Positions 1 to 6,114 of a DNA stretch of 64,000 nucleotides are shown piece after piece. Positions within the stretch are counted from its first letter, which is position 1. The number at the start of each line of letters is the position of its first letter. Origin of the DNA: Sphingopyxis sp. (lineage in GTDB: Bacteria > Pseudomonadota > Alphaproteobacteria > Sphingomonadales > Sphingomonadaceae); the NCBI GenBank assembly GCA_016793775.1, contig JAEULK010000011.1:2686-66685 (forward strand), written 5' to 3'. A program made the position numbers and the translations under genes. The notes below the pieces were generated by a model. The model did not search any database. It was not told the origin of the DNA and saw nothing but the letters and a program-made list of their open reading frames with translations.

Positions 1-798
1 ATGCGGCAGCGTTTCGGCCTGTCTGGGATATACAACGCGACCTATCGACCGTTCTCGGTCGAACACGCGCCTCTTGGCTTCCTCAAGCGCGCGCGCGGGG
101 GCCTCGGTCCAGATGTGGGGTGCCTTCGCGTCGCCAATGGAGAAAAGCCAAAGGAAGGGAATGCAGGTCACTTCCATCGCGGGAAGCTTGCCAACGTTAG
201 TGACCTCGGCCCTCACATGAGCGCTGATAAAATCGCCATGGGTTTCACTATGCCTCAGTTCGTATCGATCAACATTTACGTTGTTTATCTTCACCCATGG
301 GCGCTGAGCCATGCGCGCAATATCGTTGGACTGAATAACGGCAAGCGCGTTTTTCTCAGCGATTCCCAGCGCATCCCCAGCCCCCTTGGCGGCCTCCTGA
401 GCGATTTCTACCGTTCTTTCAGTCGCCACGGCAGCGCGCTTCGCATACCAGGCGGCGGCAATGGCAGCGCCCATGGTGAAAGCGCCGAGGACGAGGCCGA
501 CGCCACCAAGCACGACTTGCCACCAAGACCAATGGGAACTGTCATAGGCAGCGTCAGCCGCTTTCCACTGGGCGCAAAGATCGGACTTGCGGTCATCGCG
601 GCCACGCTCGCAACCCTCATCTGGGCGCGGGGAAATTGGCTGTTCTGGGGCAGCAGGATCGGTGGGCGCGGCCTTGCTGGTTACGGCCTTGGCAGCTTGG
701 GGATTTTCGCTCTGAGCGCCGCCCTGTTTGCTTGGGCTAGCCCCTACTAAGGCTAGTCCCGCAACACCAATGAGGATGCACCTATAGCCTCTAAGCAT
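1..798 (-). CDS. Membrane-anchored hypothetical protein, 3'-truncated by the window edge (absent from the ORF track)
   Basis: Hand translation from ATG at 798 is open to base 1: MLRGYRCILIGVAGLALVGASP (signal-like)...DLCAQWKAADAA...WSWWQVVLGGVGLVLGAFTMGAAIAAAWYA (TM)...QRPWV...VTNVGKLPAMEV. The track's 1..750 + ORF is its antisense shadow. Confidence 0.75.
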   Translation of the reverse strand, partial: MLRGYRCILIGVAGLALVGASPSKQGGAQSENPQAAKAVTSKAAPTDPAAPEQPISPRPDEGCERGRDDRKSDLCAQWKAADAAYDSSHWSWWQVVLGGVGLVLGAFTMGAAIAAAWYAKRAAVATERTVEIAQEAAKGAGDALGIAEKNALAVIQSNDIARMAQRPWVKINNVNVDRYELRHSETHGDFISAHVRAEVTNVGKLPAMEVTCIPFLWLFSIGDAKAPHIWTEAPARALEEAKRRVFDRERSIGRVVYPRQAETLPH

Positions 799-992
799 TG
801 CAGCATGAACGCCGCTGAGAAGCCGCCCCGGCTGATCTTGTTGTTAAGGTTCCGCTCGTTCTCTGTGACGCCAACCGACGCCAGCTTTTCCGCAAGCTGC
901 GCATAGGTAACCCCCCGCCTTTTCAGCTCGCCTTTTAACAAGTTTTTGGCGCGAGTCTCATACTCAACGGTGGCAGGATCGGCCTTCGCCAT
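753..992 (-). CDS. DUF6471-like small HTH transcriptional regulator
   Basis: 79 aa, LLKGELKRRGVTYAQLAEKL...NLNNKISRGGFSAAF. XRE-like HTH, divergent from the transposase. Confidence 0.8.
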   Translation of the reverse strand: MAKADPATVEYETRAKNLLKGELKRRGVTYAQLAEKLASVGVTENERNLNNKISRGGFSAAFMLQCLEAIGASSLVLRD

Positions 993-1005
993 ATCAGCAT
1001 CCTTT

Positions 1006-1025
1006 TATCATCAAAAATGATGATA
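1006..1025. promoter_or_regulatory. Putative operator in the repressor/transposase divergent promoter
   Basis: Perfect inverted repeat TATCATCA-AAAA-TGATGATA, 13 bp from the HTH start; TTGACT at 1033-1038. Confidence 0.6.
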
Positions 1026-1085
1026 TAGACCCTTGACTTTGGTTATGTCTACCCTCATATCCGGTGCACAACATCACTGGATACG

Positions 1086-2060
1086 ATGACAATGACCACC
1101 AAAGGCCAACATTTCCTCCTCTCTGCCAAGGCTCGCACTCTGAGCCTCAAGGCTGTTTTCACCATGGGCGAAGAGGGCGCCTACAAGACGTTCTGCCAGA
1201 TGCGCTGGCCTGAGACGGACGGCGAGGCTGTGTGCCCGCGCTGCGGCTGTGTCGAAACCTACGACATTGCCACCCGCCGCAAGTTCAAGTGCGTTGCCTG
1301 TCACCACCAGTTCTCGGTCACCAGCGGCACGATCTTCGCCAGCCGCAAGCTGGGCTTCGTCGATCTTCTCGCCGCAATCGTCATCTTCGTGAACGGCGCC
1401 AAGGGCATTGCTGCCCTGCAACTGAGCCGCGATCTAGATTGCCAGTACAAGACCGCCTTCGTGCTTACCCACAAGCTGCGCGAAGCAATGGCGCGTGAGC
1501 AGATGGGTCGCCAGCTCGACGGCATTGTCGAAATCGACGGCGCCTATTTCGGCGGCTACGTGAAGCCGGAAAACCACAAGGACGACCGCAAGGACCGCCG
1601 TCTGGTCGCCAACCGTTCGGGCAAGCGCCAGTGCGTCGTCGTGATGCGCGAGCGCGGCGGTAAGTCGCTTCCCTTCGTCGTCGCCAACGAAGGCGACGCC
1701 GTTCCTTACGTCCGCGATCATGTCGCCAACCTTGCCGTTCTCCACGCCGACGAAGGCACCGGCTGGGATGCCCTCCACGCCGGTTGGATGACTGAGCGCG
1801 TCAATCACTCGGTCCAGTTCTTCGACAAGGGTGCATGCACCAATCAGGCCGAAAGCTATTTCAGCCGCCTTCGCCGGATGGAAGTCGGCACCCACCACCA
1901 TATCGCCGGTCCGTACATCGGCGCCTATGCCCGCGAAGCTTCATGGCGCGAAGATAACCGCCGCGTATCGAACGGCGATCAGGCTGCGATGGTAACGGCC
2001 GCGGCGATGGCCTCGCGCGTCAGCCGGGACTGGAAGGGCTACTGGCAGCGAACCAACTAA
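1086..2060 (+). CDS. IS1595-family DDE transposase with N-terminal Zn ribbon
   Basis: CPRCG...FKCVAC Zn ribbon, SVTSGTIF, EIDGAYFGG, ADE, NQAESYFSRLRR, YAREASWR; reading frame intact. Confidence 0.95.
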   Translation: MTMTTKGQHFLLSAKARTLSLKAVFTMGEEGAYKTFCQMRWPETDGEAVCPRCGCVETYDIATRRKFKCVACHHQFSVTSGTIFASRKLGFVDLLAAIVIFVNGAKGIAALQLSRDLDCQYKTAFVLTHKLREAMAREQMGRQLDGIVEIDGAYFGGYVKPENHKDDRKDRRLVANRSGKRQCVVVMRERGGKSLPFVVANEGDAVPYVRDHVANLAVLHADEGTGWDALHAGWMTERVNHSVQFFDKGACTNQAESYFSRLRRMEVGTHHHIAGPYIGAYAREASWREDNRRVSNGDQAAMVTAAAMASRVSRDWKGYWQRTN

Positions 2061-2455
2061 GAACAAGCGCCGAACACCATGGGAATCCGGGACACATAAA
2101 GCAGACCTTATATGCGCCTGTGCATAACGTGGTGTGCAAAATATGCTCTAAAATGCCCTCAGAGGGCACAGGAAGCGCGTTAACCAAGCGGAGTACTCCT
2201 CTTGGCATTTTTGCGATTGTCGCATCCACAGGGCTTTAAAACCGAAAATTTGGCACTCTCTTGCGACAAGTGCTTGCCTCTAAACCTGAACGGCCCTAAA
2301 CAGCAAAAGGCCCCGGACGGTGGAAACGTCCGAGGCCTCGAGAGCCCCGCGCTGGTGGCGGGGGATTTGCTATAGCGAGGGGGTTTTATACCCCGGGGAT
2401 AGCAAGGTCAACTGCCACCACGCGCATCAGAAGCGTTTTAATGGTGGAGTTCGAC

Positions 2456-2728
2456 ATGGCTACATACAACGTCACGATCTTGTGCGGCGCGTGCAAGTGC
2501 CCAGCGCAAACCGTCGCTAATCCGAAACCTCATGACAAGGTGACCTGTCCCAGGTGCAACCGAAGCGACCGTTTCGATAACGTCCATCGGACGGTGGGCG
2601 AGCATGTCCAATATGAGACTGCCCGCGCCCTCAATGAAAGCATGGCCCGCGCCACTCGCGGCAGCCGCTTCGTTAAGTTCAAGCCAAAGCACCTCCCCCA
2701 GCGGTCGTTCCGCTGGATTGCCGGCTAG
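2456..2728 (+). CDS. Small Zn-ribbon protein (90 aa)
   Basis: CGAC...CPRC pairs; GGTGGAG SD at 2443-2449 supports the ATG at 2456. Confidence 0.65.
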   Translation: MATYNVTILCGACKCPAQTVANPKPHDKVTCPRCNRSDRFDNVHRTVGEHVQYETARALNESMARATRGSRFVKFKPKHLPQRSFRWIAG

Positions 2729-2783
2729 AGCGATATTGAGTTTCTGAGTTTTCATTCGCCCAATCGGAAAGGGGGTGATTTCA

Positions 2784-2918
2784 TTGGCAAACAAGACCCA
2801 CGAACGTGGACGGGACGCTGGTAGCGGCCAGTTCATTCCCGTCCACGTCGCAGAACGTCGTCCTAAGACGACGGTGGTTGAGACCTATAAGGTCGGCAAG
2901 AAGGGACCGAAGAATTAA
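2784..2918 (+). CDS. 44-aa basic hypothetical protein (below the ORF-track cutoff)
   Basis: SD AAAGGGGGTGAT then TTG: MANKTHERGRDAGSGQFIPVHVAERRPKTTVVETYKVGKKGPKN, stop TAA, followed by a hairpin. Confidence 0.7.
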   Translation: MANKTHERGRDAGSGQFIPVHVAERRPKTTVVETYKVGKKGPKN

Positions 2919-2932
2919 TCGGTCCTAATATG

Positions 2933-2962
2933 GGTCGCCGGGGCTGCACGGTCCCGGCGACC
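2933..2962. terminator. Hairpin between convergent cargo units
   Basis: GGTCGCCGGG-N10-CCCGGCGACC, a 10-bp perfect stem; no clear U-tract. Confidence 0.55.
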
Positions 2963-2964
2963 AA

Positions 2965-3129
2965 TCAGGGACGAATGTTTGCGAGGCAATCCGCTGGCGG
3001 TTTTGATGCGGCCTTTTTGCGGTCCACGGACATCGACACGCCTTCGGCCTGACGATACTCGTATCGAGGCATCTTCAGATCAAAGACGACCTTAGGCCGT
3101 GCGTTCGCCCCGCTGCTCTTTTTAGACAT
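2965..3129 (-). CDS. 54-aa basic hypothetical protein coupled to the Ntn hydrolase
   Basis: GGAGG SD then ATG overlapping the last codons of the upstream gene; MSKKSSGANARPKVVFDLKMPRYEY. Confidence 0.5.
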   Translation of the reverse strand: MSKKSSGANARPKVVFDLKMPRYEYRQAEGVSMSVDRKKAASKPPADCLANIRP

Positions 3130-3970
3130 AATCTGCCTCCAAGGGGTTAAGCTTTCGATCAAAGTGATGCTTCCGTTTTATCCACTTAAAACCTTCGTGT
3201 TTCGTTACGACGCAAATGTCGGTTTCACCGCCGACGGTGTCAGCGCCGGGTAGGAAACGCACGTATGCCTTCGTTGTTTCAACCAAGAAATTTGCGAGCG
3301 CAATCGCGTCCTGTACAGGCATCGCGGGCGATATCAACGGGGCTCTGGTCCGACTTTCTATGTGGGTCAGCACCGCGTCTAAGTTTTCTGGCAACAATCC
3401 AATGTCTAAGAGCGCGTTCGGCAAAAATTGGCTGTAGCCGTTTACGATGCGGTTGATCGCTTCGGGTTGGCCGTCATAGAGGATATCAAATTCGTCCTTC
3501 CCCGCGAGGCATTCCGGCTCTGAGCACTCGCCATTCACGATCTGAATGCGCCATATTTCGCCGTGCATTTCCTTCGCGCAATTGCCCGCGATCCAGAACT
3601 GAAATTCGCTTTGCGGCTTGTCTTCCAGCTTCTGAAAATGCTCCTCAAAGAAGAACGTCCGCGCACGGTTGGCCACCTGTTCGATGGTGTAGTTTTTCGG
3701 GTCGATATGCCATTCGTCGTCTTCCGCGGTGAATCTCGCCCGAAGATCCTTGGCCAGCGTGCTAATGGAGATCGGACCGATGTTCCCCATGCCACACGTC
3801 ATCGCGGCAATTGGAAGACCCTTGCGCAGGTTGAACACCTTATTGCCGTGGGAATAGACATTGGCGATCAAGGGGCGGCCATCATCCAGCGAGGATTCAA
3901 TGAGTGATGACGCGCTATCGGCAGCAAACACGATACAGTCGTGTACTTTGACCGCGACGCAAACCGTCAT
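3122..3970 (-). CDS. Proteasome beta/HslV-like Ntn-hydrolase fold protein
   Basis: N-terminus M-TVCVAVKVHDCIVFAADS matches the Thr1...AAD pattern; GNKVF Lys; C-terminal DTVGGETDICVV; SD GAGGGGG. Confidence 0.7.
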   Translation of the reverse strand: MTVCVAVKVHDCIVFAADSASSLIESSLDDGRPLIANVYSHGNKVFNLRKGLPIAAMTCGMGNIGPISISTLAKDLRARFTAEDDEWHIDPKNYTIEQVANRARTFFFEEHFQKLEDKPQSEFQFWIAGNCAKEMHGEIWRIQIVNGECSEPECLAGKDEFDILYDGQPEAINRIVNGYSQFLPNALLDIGLLPENLDAVLTHIESRTRAPLISPAMPVQDAIALANFLVETTKAYVRFLPGADTVGGETDICVVTKHEGFKWIKRKHHFDRKLNPLEADYV

Positions 3971-4032
3971 AAATCCCCCTCACCGCCGATGAATCATAGT
4001 GTGCCGTTCATGTCAATCACTCGCGACGGCAA

Positions 4033-4467
4033 CTAACGTACCAGCTCCCATTCAAGATATTGACCGCCGCGAGTTTCAACGTTGCGAACCAATGATTGAT
4101 CGCGACGATCACGAAGGCACGTTGAGACGCGCTTGGTCATCAACCCGAGCAACTTGGGGGTCGCGGTCAATCCGCGCTGTACGATCATCTGAGCGGCAAT
4201 CTCACGCGACGTAAGCGGCTTGTTCGCAACGCGCATGATCGACAGGACGACGCGGGACATTTCGCCGCGCTTCGACCAGTCGTCGGGCGGGCGGACGAAC
4301 TTGGGGGCAATGGCGGGAATATCCAGATCGGGCGCGACCAGCTTTATCGCGGCGTCGAGCGTTTCCAGATCGCGCGCCATCTGAGCCAGCGCGTCCTGTG
4401 TCCGCGTCATCTCGCCCGCCAGTTCCGCGCGGCGCTTCACCAGCCCTGTCACCATGTAATCTGTCAT
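4033..4467 (-). CDS. Coiled-coil plus winged-helix hypothetical protein at the transposon end
   Basis: N-terminal heptads (LVKRRAELAGEM...LETLDAAIKL); C-terminal wHTH-like RVVLSIMR...PLTSREIA...LEWEL; starts 67 bp inside the terminus. Confidence 0.8.
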   Translation of the reverse strand: MTDYMVTGLVKRRAELAGEMTRTQDALAQMARDLETLDAAIKLVAPDLDIPAIAPKFVRPPDDWSKRGEMSRVVLSIMRVANKPLTSREIAAQMIVQRGLTATPKLLGLMTKRVSTCLRDRRDQSLVRNVETRGGQYLEWELVR

Positions 4468-4469
4468 GG

Positions 4470-4534
4470 TGCTACATTACGAAAAGTTCACTAGACAGGG
4501 CAGATGGTCGTTGGTGCGTTTGCTACATAATGCC
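4470..4534 (-). repeat. Transposon terminal sequence with subterminal repeat
   Basis: TGCTACATAA (4521-4530) and TGCTACATTA (4470-4479) are direct repeats 51 bp apart; terminus GGCATTATGTAGC on the - strand. Confidence 0.75.
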
Positions 4535-5260
4535 GAGCGCCTCGCCGGGATCGAGGTCGGGCAAGATGCCGGGCAGGCACGCCGCCATCAGCGACTTGCC
4601 CGCGCCGGGCGGGCCGACCATCAGCAGATTATGCCCGCCCGCCGCGGCGATTTCGAGCGCGCGCTTGGCGACCTCCTGCCCCTTGACCTGCGCGAGGTCG
4701 GCCATGCGGCGCGGCTCCTCGACCTCACCGGGGCGCGGCGGGGCGAGCAGTGCGCGGCCCTTGAAATGGTTGAGCAGCGAGAGGAGGTCGGGCGCCGCGA
4801 GCACCTCGACATTGCCCGCCCACGCCGCCTCAGGCCCCTGCGCGACGGGGCAGATCAGCCCGCGATCCTGGCTGCCCGCGTGAAGCGCCGCGAGCAGCAC
4901 CCCGGGCGAGGCGGCGACGCGGCCGTCGAGGCCGAGCTCGCCGACGACCACATAGGCGCCGATCGTTTCGGCATCGATGACGCCCATCGCGCCGAGCAGC
5001 GCCAGCGCGATGGGCAGGTCGTAGTGCGATCCCTCCTTGGGCAGGTCGGCGGGCGACAGGTTGACGGTGATGACCTTGGGCGGGAGCGACAGGCCGATCG
5101 CGGCGATCGCGGCGCGGACGCGCTCGCGGCTTTCGCCGACCGCCTTGTCGGGCAGGCCGACGACGACGAAGCGCGGCACGCCGGGGGTGATCTGGCACTG
5201 CACCTCGACCCCGCGCGCTTCGAGGCCGAGATAGGCGACGGTGGACACGATCGCGACCAT
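4535..5260 (-). pseudogene. comM: 5' half (242 codons) of comM/yifB Mg-chelatase-like AAA+ ATPase, interrupted
   Basis: GLPDKAVGESRERVRAA, VNLSPADLPKEGSHYDLPIA, VKGQEVAKRALEIAAAGGHNLLMVGPPGAGKS. After LDPGEAL it reads into the element (GIM-stop). Full ComM is about twice this length. Confidence 0.95.
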
Positions 5261-5409
5261 GGATATCCCCCAAAGCGGACCCCAAAACGGACGATGTGCC
5301 CGGTTTGTTCTCATGCCCTTTTAGGGCAAAGTCGCGCGAAGGCGAGTCTTTTCGGATGTTGGCGAAGGTGCCGCGCAGCGTGACGTTTGGGGCAAGCCCG
5401 ATTGTCGAT

Positions 5410-5438
5410 TTGACAACATACCGACTGGTCGGTATGGT
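5410..5438 (+). promoter_or_regulatory. Sigma70 promoter with TetR-type operator
   Basis: TTGACA-17 bp-TATGGT; perfect palindrome CATACCGAC-TG-GTCGGTATG (5417-5436) covers the spacer and the -10. Confidence 0.8.
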
Positions 5439-5445
5439 GATTCTT

Positions 5446-6114
5446 ATGACGACTCAGCCCCCTTGCCTTCCCTCCGCCGCGGGCGATGGCGCTGCGACGG
5501 GCAGCCGCACCCCGCGCGGCAGCGCGCGGGCGGCGTTGATCGCGGCGGCACACAGCACGGTGCGCAAGCAGGGCTATGCCGCGACGAGCGTCGACGAGAT
5601 TTGCGCCGCGGCGGGCGTCACCAAAGGCGCCTTTTTTCACCATTTTGCGTCGAAAGAGGCGCTCGCCGTCGCGGCCGCCGAGGGCTGGACCGAGCGCGCG
5701 CGGCCGATGTTCGAGCTGGCGCCGCACACCAGGCTGGACGACCCGCTCGACCGCTTGCTCGGCCATATCGATTTCCGGCTGGCGATGCTCGACGGCCCGA
5801 CCGAGGATTATACCTGCTTCGTCGGCACGATGGTGCAGGAGGCCTATTCGACCAACGACCGCATCCGCGCCGCGTGCGAGGCGAGCATCAACGCCTATTG
5901 CGAGGCGCTCGCCCCCGACATCCAGGCCGCCATGGATGTTTATGGCGCGCCCGAAGATGTCACCGCGATCGGACTCGCTCAGCATGTCCAGTCGGTGCTG
6001 CAGGGCGCCTTCGTCCTGGCGAAAACGACGAACGACCCGGCGATTGCGCGCGGCACCGTCACCCATCTGAAGCGTTATGTCCGGATGCTGTTCGGACGCG
6101 GAGGCGCGGCATGA
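5446..6114 (+). CDS. TetR/AcrR family regulator (NemR/LmrA-like)
   Basis: GYAATSVDEICAAAGVTKGAFFHHFASKEAL HTH; C-terminal CFVGTM, QGAFVLAK. Confidence 0.92.
   Translation: MTTQPPCLPSAAGDGAATGSRTPRGSARAALIAAAHSTVRKQGYAATSVDEICAAAGVTKGAFFHHFASKEALAVAAAEGWTERARPMFELAPHTRLDDPLDRLLGHIDFRLAMLDGPTEDYTCFVGTMVQEAYSTNDRIRAACEASINAYCEALAPDIQAAMDVYGAPEDVTAIGLAQHVQSVLQGAFVLAKTTNDPAIARGTVTHLKRYVRMLFGRGGAA

Follow-up and report, generated by a model that had tools for sequence, protein, structure and literature searches.

Introduction

Cargo-carrying members of the IS1595 family were already described in 2009 as transporter insertion sequences (transporter IS), among them ISNha5 with its regulator-type passengers (Siguier, Gagnevin and Chandler, 2009). 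Here, an element of this kind is analyzed that interrupts the gene comM in a Sphingopyxis genome. The stretch of DNA under study, referred to as the window, comprises 64,000 nucleotides and corresponds to positions 2686-66685 of contig C53 in an assembly of 106 contigs; the element lies across its left border.

The AbaR/Tn6022-type Tn7-like transposons of Acinetobacter baumannii enter comM with a multi-protein Tn7-type machinery that includes a dedicated target selector, in a single orientation and with a target duplication of 5 bp. Preferences for certain sites are also known from the hot spots of IS30 and from IS1397, which targets repetitive extragenic palindromic (REP) sequences, and in these cases they can be traced to recognisable palindromic or REP sequences. 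For AbaR islands, a gain from comM disruption has been shown. A review from 2025 reported the disruption of comM by various mobile elements in Gammaproteobacteria only; it further described that ComM aids the integration of heterologous DNA, that it is required for DNA delivered by gene transfer agents (GTAs) in Rhodobacter capsulatus and that it may act directly in the removal of mobile elements.

With considerable confidence, we interpret the element in the window as an IS1595 transporter IS whose family repeatedly and independently enters base-exact sites in comM, with a target choice that is probably driven by the transposition machinery and a benefit that would lie in protection from curing.

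Results

A transporter IS of the IS1595 family has inserted into comM

The 5' fragment of comM is located at positions 4536-5260 of the window on the minus strand and encodes codons 1-242 with the ChlI domain and Walker A (Pfam ChlI and Mg_chelatase, NCBIfam YifB). A first-pass annotation of the window had described comM as intact for 242 codons and then broken, and this was borne out, as the frame runs from 5260 down to 4536; the break had been placed 17 codons after GPPGAGKS, while our count gives 19 residues, a trivial difference. The fragment reads ...GPPGAGKSLMAACLPGILPDLDPGEAL and then passes into GGCATTATGTAGC, the exact break being ...GAGGCGCT|C-GGCATTATGTAGC after codon 242. The remainder of comM and a matching element end, which had been predicted to lie left of the window, were both found in the 2685 bases that precede it on the same contig. 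There, GGCATTATGTAGC occurs at C53:2397 (window -288) on the plus strand as the reverse complement of the right end, and comM resumes in frame from C53:2395 downwards (...EALEVSMIASVAG...) for 141 further codons, which read EALEVSMIASVAGQLEGG...LFLDELPEF...LLDRI.

The element is 4825 bp long (C53:2396-7220, window -289 to 4535), so that it starts 289 bp to the left of the window, and it is bounded by perfect 25-bp inverted repeats (CGGCATTATGTAGCAAACGCACCAA) at C53:2396-2420 and C53:7196-7220. The right terminal inverted repeat (TTGGTGCGTTTGCTACATAATGCC-G) occupies positions 4511-4535 of the window, its partner being the copy at C53:2396-2420; these ends are conserved in all 87 elements of the family that are compared below. 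A direct repeat of 8 bp flanks the element, with the right copy at positions 4536-4543 and the left copy at C53:2388-2395. A duplication of about this length had been expected with the sequence GAGCGCCT, which is one base off, the actual duplication being AGCGCCTC; its phase is set by the family ends C-GG...CC-G, which are common to every element. In-silico removal of the element together with one repeat copy restored the comM frame (...LDPGEALEVSMIASV), and the three closest Sphingopyxis relatives (comM protein 95-98% identical) carry the empty site with one target copy in an uninterrupted comM. The G+C content drops from approximately 0.67-0.74 in comM to 0.53-0.60 in the element. Insertion of the element behind codon 242 has thus inactivated comM.

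A single transposase gene is located in the middle of the element and is present in one copy in the genome. In Pfam and NCBIfam scans, neither an integrase or recombinase other than the DDE transposase nor TnsA, TnsB, TnsC, TnsD or TniQ domains were detected inside the element. A Tn7-like transposon was ruled out, as Tns-type domains are lacking and the DDE transposase is of the IS1595 type. The same holds for a composite (compound) transposon, given the single central transposase, the restriction of the 25-bp repeats to the outer ends and the single genomic copy. A genomic island driven by an integrase or recombinase was rejected as well, since no tyrosine or serine recombinase lies inside the element. 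The description of a central DDE transposase in the absence of integrase, serine recombinase and Tns genes therefore holds for the window; the large serine recombinase gene that lies a short way to the left of the element is part of a second insertion. The DDE_Tnp_IS1595 domain, the zinc ribbon, the terminal inverted repeats and the 8-bp target duplication are those of the IS1595 family, and passenger genes within the inverted repeats of an element of several kilobases are those of a transporter IS. Taken together, these features define a bounded IS1595 transposon that carries cargo.

Two base-exact positions in comM are used recurrently

Relatives were gathered in two ways. When 401 genomes drawn evenly from the order were searched with the transposase, 41 of them gave a match, almost always a single one each. 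A scan with one genome per species returned 560 relatives, and the analysis covered the best 80 of these. After three identical duplicates had been dropped, the final set comprised 87 distinct elements from as many species. Insertions in comM were mapped by tblastn with three pieces of comM, and targets outside comM were named by Pfam together with open reading frames (ORFs) filtered by G+C content at third codon positions (GC3). Inverted repeats of the form CGG[CT][AC]TTATGTA[GT]C... were mapped in all loci with sufficient flanking sequence, the 8-bp duplications were perfect in nearly all elements and near-perfect in the others, and element length ranged from 1.9 to 8.5 kb with a median of 3.6 kb. 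Annotated plasmid records contained only a generic "IS1595 family transposase", and plasmid-borne relatives were at most 60% identical.

comM was the target of 29 of the 87 elements, at only two base-exact positions, each of them used in both orientations. Site A, the position occupied in the window, harbors 21 elements; the duplication is AGYGCYTC in 12 of them and the reverse complement GARGCRCT in 9, and it always spans the E-A-L codons approximately 19 residues past Walker A (in the Parvularculaceae element L121 it reads GAGATGCT). Site B is located 65 codons downstream of site A and harbors eight elements, six in one orientation and two in the other, with the duplication GARTTYNN spanning the E-F codons of LFLDELPEF just past Walker B. 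Carriers belong to at least 15 (site A) and at least 6 (site B) genera or genus-level groups, and all comM carriers together to at least 20. They are found in Sphingomonadales, Rhodospirillales-type bacteria, Parvularculales, Hyphomicrobiales and Rhodobacterales, the carriers other than sphingomonads being Dongiaceae, Pelagibius, Parvularculaceae, Parvibaculum and a Rhodobacteraceae bacterium. The share of comM was 22 of 52 elements within Sphingomonadales versus 1 of 22 within Rhodobacterales. The element family re-uses a small set of target positions, and the two most used are the comM sites.

Independence and age of the comM insertions

In a tree of the transposases of 82 elements, 19 changes were needed to account for the 21 rows labelled site A, and well-supported branches force at least 14 of these; for site B, 6 changes were needed, at least 4 of them forced. 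Sister elements within one genus were located in different targets in two Blastomonas species and in two Sphingomonas species, and the same was observed for a Pelagibius and a Kiloniellaceae genome. This scatter over the tree shows that the comM insertions go back to many independent events. In-silico excision resulted in a full-length comM frame ending in ...EALSYRR in approximately 23 of 26 assessable loci, indicating that the insertions are recent relative to gene decay.

One or a few ancient insertions into comM, inherited vertically or spread between species by homologous recombination in the comM flanks, would be another explanation. These flanks are conserved enough for recombination, and an element-bearing allele could travel by transformation or with GTAs. 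However, site-A elements are scattered in the tree with sisters in other targets, both orientations occur at both comM sites, the comM flanks of the carriers differ at synonymous positions and the comM fragments are undecayed. Moreover, in most congeners the element is absent and comM is intact. An ancient origin of the comM insertions is therefore very improbable.

Genes of the element

Four genes form a core with fixed order and orientation. Among the first 20 elements, F4 was present in 14, the DUF6471 gene in 18, the transposase gene in 20 and F2 in 19. Variable cargo is located between the transposase gene and F2, and the smallest elements have no room beyond the core.

The transposase (positions 1086-2060, plus strand, 324 amino acids) was identified by Pfam as DDE_Tnp_IS1595 (PF12762, 1.5e-35) with an N-terminal CxxC...CxxC zinc ribbon (Zn_ribbon_IS1595, PF12760, 1e-13) and by NCBIfam as transpos_IS1595 (NF033547, 1.1e-41). 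Residues C50, C53, C69, C72, D151, D222, E256 and R263 were invariant in 16 homologues. Divergent from the transposase gene, the DUF6471 protein of 79 amino acids is encoded at positions 753-992 on the minus strand (PF20075, E 6e-32); its mean column identity across elements is 72%, and judged from its sequence it is probably a helix-turn-helix protein, while a profile search against PDB gave nothing significant. F4, the first gene inside the left end, encodes a predicted membrane protein of approximately 300 amino acids on the minus strand (positions 1-798 in the window, full ORF C53:2584-3483). It is very divergent, with 16-33% identity between elements, and had no match in Pfam, PADLOC or PHROG. 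An AlphaFold2 (AF2) model of F4 shows two helices, one N-terminal and one long, and a beta domain, with a predicted local distance difference test score (pLDDT) of 66, which is too weak for a fold search. F2, the last gene before the right end (positions 4033-4467, minus strand, 144 amino acids), was modeled by AF2 (pLDDT 88.9) as a long helix at the N-terminus and a winged helix at the C-terminus. Foldseek matched the model to winged-helix DNA-binding domains of the MarR, PadR and Fur type (best E 5.8e-4), and F2 is predicted with confidence to be a coiled-coil winged-helix protein.

The variable cargo of the window element consists of two ORFs. A CxxC zinc-ribbon ORF of 95 amino acids (positions 2441-2728, plus strand) gave weak matches to NCBIfam ECs_2282_CxxC (1.5e-4) and DUF5817; an alternative reading is an overlapping ORF of 132 amino acids at positions 2438-2836 on the minus strand. 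Among the compared elements, this cargo (families F13/F14) was shared only with locus L038. The second ORF (positions 3122-3970, minus strand) encodes a protein of 282 amino acids that was present only in the window element among those compared. It had no match in Pfam, NCBIfam, PADLOC or PDB, its sole PHROG match being C-terminal to phrog_5990 (function unassigned), and its region has a G+C content of 0.53-0.54, below that of its flanks. For the DUF6471 protein, F4 and the protein of 282 amino acids, nothing informative as to function was obtained from Pfam, NCBIfam, PHROG or PDB. No defence system was recognised in the cargo by PADLOC. Outside the element, a gene for a TetR-family regulator at positions 5296-6114, divergent from the comM start, belongs to the ordinary neighbourhood of comM.

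Targets outside comM and the choice of sites

Two groups of results weigh against a transposition machinery that is directed to comM, namely the use of other loci and the outcome of searches for a targeting rule. Regarding the first, 58 of the 87 elements were located outside comM, and in five of five genomes tested that carry the element elsewhere, comM was intact and unoccupied. Moreover, the nearest kin of the window element, with a 95-98% identical transposase in three Sphingopyxis species, resides in an intergenic palindrome. This palindrome (GACTTACGAAC-TT-GTTCGTTAGTC) is near-perfect, 24 bp long and centred on the duplication, and is entered in both orientations (loci L037, L057 and L058). 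The proposal of the first-pass annotation that this IS1595 lineage targets comM is thus retained as a preference only, expressed in the 29 elements at two exact positions and accompanied by further recurrent targets. Insertions of homologous elements at unrelated loci, which had been named as evidence to the contrary, do occur, and the specificity for comM still stands. comM is a hot spot for the element family, not an obligatory or exclusive attachment site.

Regarding the second group, no sequence rule uniting the hot spots was found. A strong target consensus was ruled out, as the duplications contain only approximately 2.5 bits of information (S-A-N-A-T-N-T-S), to which the comM sites are poor fits. 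No flank motif common to the site classes was detected, either at fixed register or within 40 bp, the only k-mers obtained being the marginal AAATA and GCCTCA. Targets resembling the element ends were also ruled out, since end-like sequence was not positionally enriched in the flanks. The same applies to guide-RNA-like targeting: the longest exact match between element interior and target had a mean length of 9.3 nt for the own target and of 9.2 nt for the targets of others, Rfam revealed no RNA family in the locus, and in the smallest elements no non-coding space is left over. The potential of the empty comM sites to form hairpins or cruciforms was unremarkable (z-scores -1.0 to +1.8). Finally, elements lacking F4 still occur in comM, and a role of the accessory proteins in targeting is one that we infer.

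Several of the other targets are recurrent as well. The second most frequent target gene encodes an NfrB-like family-2 glycosyltransferase (NCBIfam NF011307) and harbors nine elements (L047, L049, L062, L064, L069, L074, L076, L082 and L085) at four or more positions within approximately 70 bp, on both sides of the block coding for GPTTKADCLN. As related enzymes make surface polysaccharide that serves as phage receptor, it is conceivable by analogy that this target, too, is linked to the uptake of foreign DNA. In the spacer between mnmE and mnmG, three independent insertions (L052, L086 and L094) precede the start codon of mnmG by 3 nt and adjoin the perfect palindrome TGTTCCACGTGGAACA. Other islands are known to use the 3' end of mnmE (trmE) as an attachment region. 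Two elements occupy the 3' end of upp, and three Rhodobacterales elements share one position in an unnamed gene. The Rhodobacterales branch, with the ends CGGCCTTATGTATC, was mostly found in AT-rich octamers of the GAAATAYC type directly beside GC-rich hairpin-like sequences (L096, L103, L105, L110, L116, L117, L122, L124, L126 and L130), which suggests that this branch prefers a different class of target. As a separate observation, the left half of the Sphingopyxis palindrome (CGAGACTT.CG) is similar to the sequence on the left of comM site A.

Near-random insertion, with the excess in comM resulting from selection for comM loss or from survivorship because elements elsewhere have been cured, would be in line with the many family members at unrelated loci, and other elements provide documented cases of such selection for the loss of comM. 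However, selection for the loss of a gene cannot put 29 insertions on two 8-bp positions of a 1.5-kb gene, in the same codon register and in both orientations, and for some of the recurrent targets that lie between genes, such as the mnmE-mnmG spacer and the palindrome in Sphingopyxis, an advantage open to selection is not obvious. Given the base-exact recurrence, selection for comM loss alone is insufficient, and we regard near-random insertion as highly improbable.

A further possibility is that the targeting is real but that the transposase itself reads a host feature, either a bound host protein or the local shape of the DNA, while the accessory proteins only regulate expression or serve the relationship between host and element. 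That no sequence motif was found, that several targets outside comM adjoin palindromes or GC hairpins, and that comM is also entered by elements devoid of F4 would fit such a mechanism. The unremarkable hairpin potential at the comM sites speaks against it, and the present data fit a targeting guided by accessory proteins equally well. We consider such a direct reading of the host by the transposase possible, yet do not favor it.

comM is interrupted a second time in the window genome

A second break in comM was found after ...SGPLLDRI at approximately C53:1985 and is due to a separate element. A large serine recombinase of 556 amino acids (Resolvase, Recombinase and Zn_ribbon_recom domains), encoded at C53:75-1745, adjoins this break (locus L001), and the 3' remainder of comM (RDRIDLHVEV...EALSYRRQAPRS) is located on contig C66 at approximately 2000-2960 (locus L002), behind AT-rich foreign DNA. 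The same pair was observed in Sphingomonas aracearum (L088), in which an IS1595 element at site A is accompanied by a serine recombinase of 35% identity, which lies at the same position further down in comM. A GC-rich palindromic repeat (CTTGCGCTGCGCGCGCCTCCGGTCGGGCTACGCCCGCCCTCCGCCGCACGCAGCGCAAG...) is present at C53:1-135, where it overlaps the 3' end of the serine recombinase ORF, and at several other contig ends; it also forms a 149-nt tandem at L145:5366-5662 in another Sphingopyxis. This repeat probably explains the contig break of C53.

In three other Sphingopyxis species, comM is interrupted at a third point, NLLM|VGPPGAGKS, just before Walker A, by inserts of approximately 4.4, 7.5 and 12.4 kb (L145 in G408, L146 in G407 and L147 in G406). 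The 4.4-kb insert encodes an Excalibur-domain protein and contains the 149-nt tandem repeat, and no recombinase domain was recognised in it.

The state of comM also bears on the idea that the IS1595 element acts as a reversible switch, in which precise excision in some cells would restore comM, as is the case for some prophages in competence or sporulation genes, so that the comM halves would be kept by selection. This idea is in agreement with the otherwise intact comM in approximately 23 of 26 loci and with the putative regulators that the element encodes. However, cut-and-paste excision by a DDE transposase leaves the 8-bp duplication behind and thereby an 8-nt frame shift in comM unless it is precisely repaired, and in the window genome, where comM is broken twice, excision of the IS1595 element alone cannot restore the gene. 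A reversible switch is thus unlikely.

Discussion

The transposition machinery, and not selection alone, probably chooses the target, and in doing so it would read features outside the 8-bp duplication. In our working model, these features beyond the duplication would be read either by the transposase or by the DUF6471 protein together with the winged-helix protein. The conserved accessory proteins, with their putative DNA-binding function, are the best candidates for target selection or for the regulation of transposition. Loss of ComM would lower the recombination of DNA that arrives by transformation or with GTAs, and lowered recombination would in turn reduce the chance that an empty allele entering the cell removes the element. 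Such self-protection from curing is plausible by analogy, as it fits the literature on other comM-targeting elements, the use of ComM in transformation or GTA uptake being putative in these hosts. A more far-reaching version would be that an IS1595 element with a single transposase has evolved a targeted pathway like that of Tn7, in which the DUF6471 and winged-helix proteins direct insertion to conserved codons in genes of DNA uptake (comM and perhaps the NfrB-like gene) and so disable curing by transformation or GTAs, with a mode of low specificity elsewhere; this version we regard as rather doubtful.

IS1595 elements are usually treated as ordinary insertion sequences for which a choice of target is not known, and the present subgroup revisits two exact positions in comM across several alphaproteobacterial orders. 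It thereby offers a simple single-transposase system for the study of target choice, be it by the DDE transposase or by small DNA-binding accessory proteins, that works without Tn7-type machinery or a guide RNA. The pattern of mobile elements disabling comM is extended from Gammaproteobacteria to Alphaproteobacteria, where ComM also serves GTA-delivered DNA, and the anti-curing hypothesis becomes testable in a new group of bacteria. For annotation, a split comM in sphingomonads is to be read as an insertion of this element and not as decay of the gene.

In a full-text literature search, no paper was found in which IS1595 or ISNha5 is connected with comM or with target specificity of any kind. 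Among the known systems that enter conserved genes, serine-recombinase elements are represented in this genome by the second comM insertion, which uses another mechanism and another position in comM (LLDRI|DLHVEV). Like IS30 and IS1397, the present family combines a single transposase and a strong site preference with insertions elsewhere. Unlike in IS30 and IS1397, its preferred comM sites lie within conserved coding sequence, and no common motif was found. With the AbaR/Tn6022-type Tn7-like transposons it shares a fixed position in comM, the carriage of cargo and the proposed reduction of curing by transformation. In contrast to them, it uses one IS1595 transposase, an 8-bp duplication, both orientations and two sites, and has many insertions outside comM.

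ISNha5 has in common with the present family an IS1595-type DDE transposase with a zinc ribbon, inverted repeats, a length of several kilobases and regulator-like passengers. In ISfinder, the ISNha5 subgroup is characterized by ends of the form CGGnnTT, an 8-bp duplication, its size range and a DDER/K signature, and beside these values stand the ends CGG[CT][AC]TTATGTA and the invariant residues D151, D222, E256 and R263 of the present family; the likeness of the window element to ISNha5 is a probable one, judged by description. What sets the present family apart from ISNha5 are the two base-exact comM sites and the other recurrent targets that are documented here. The element thus represents a known family with a new property, a target preference for comM.

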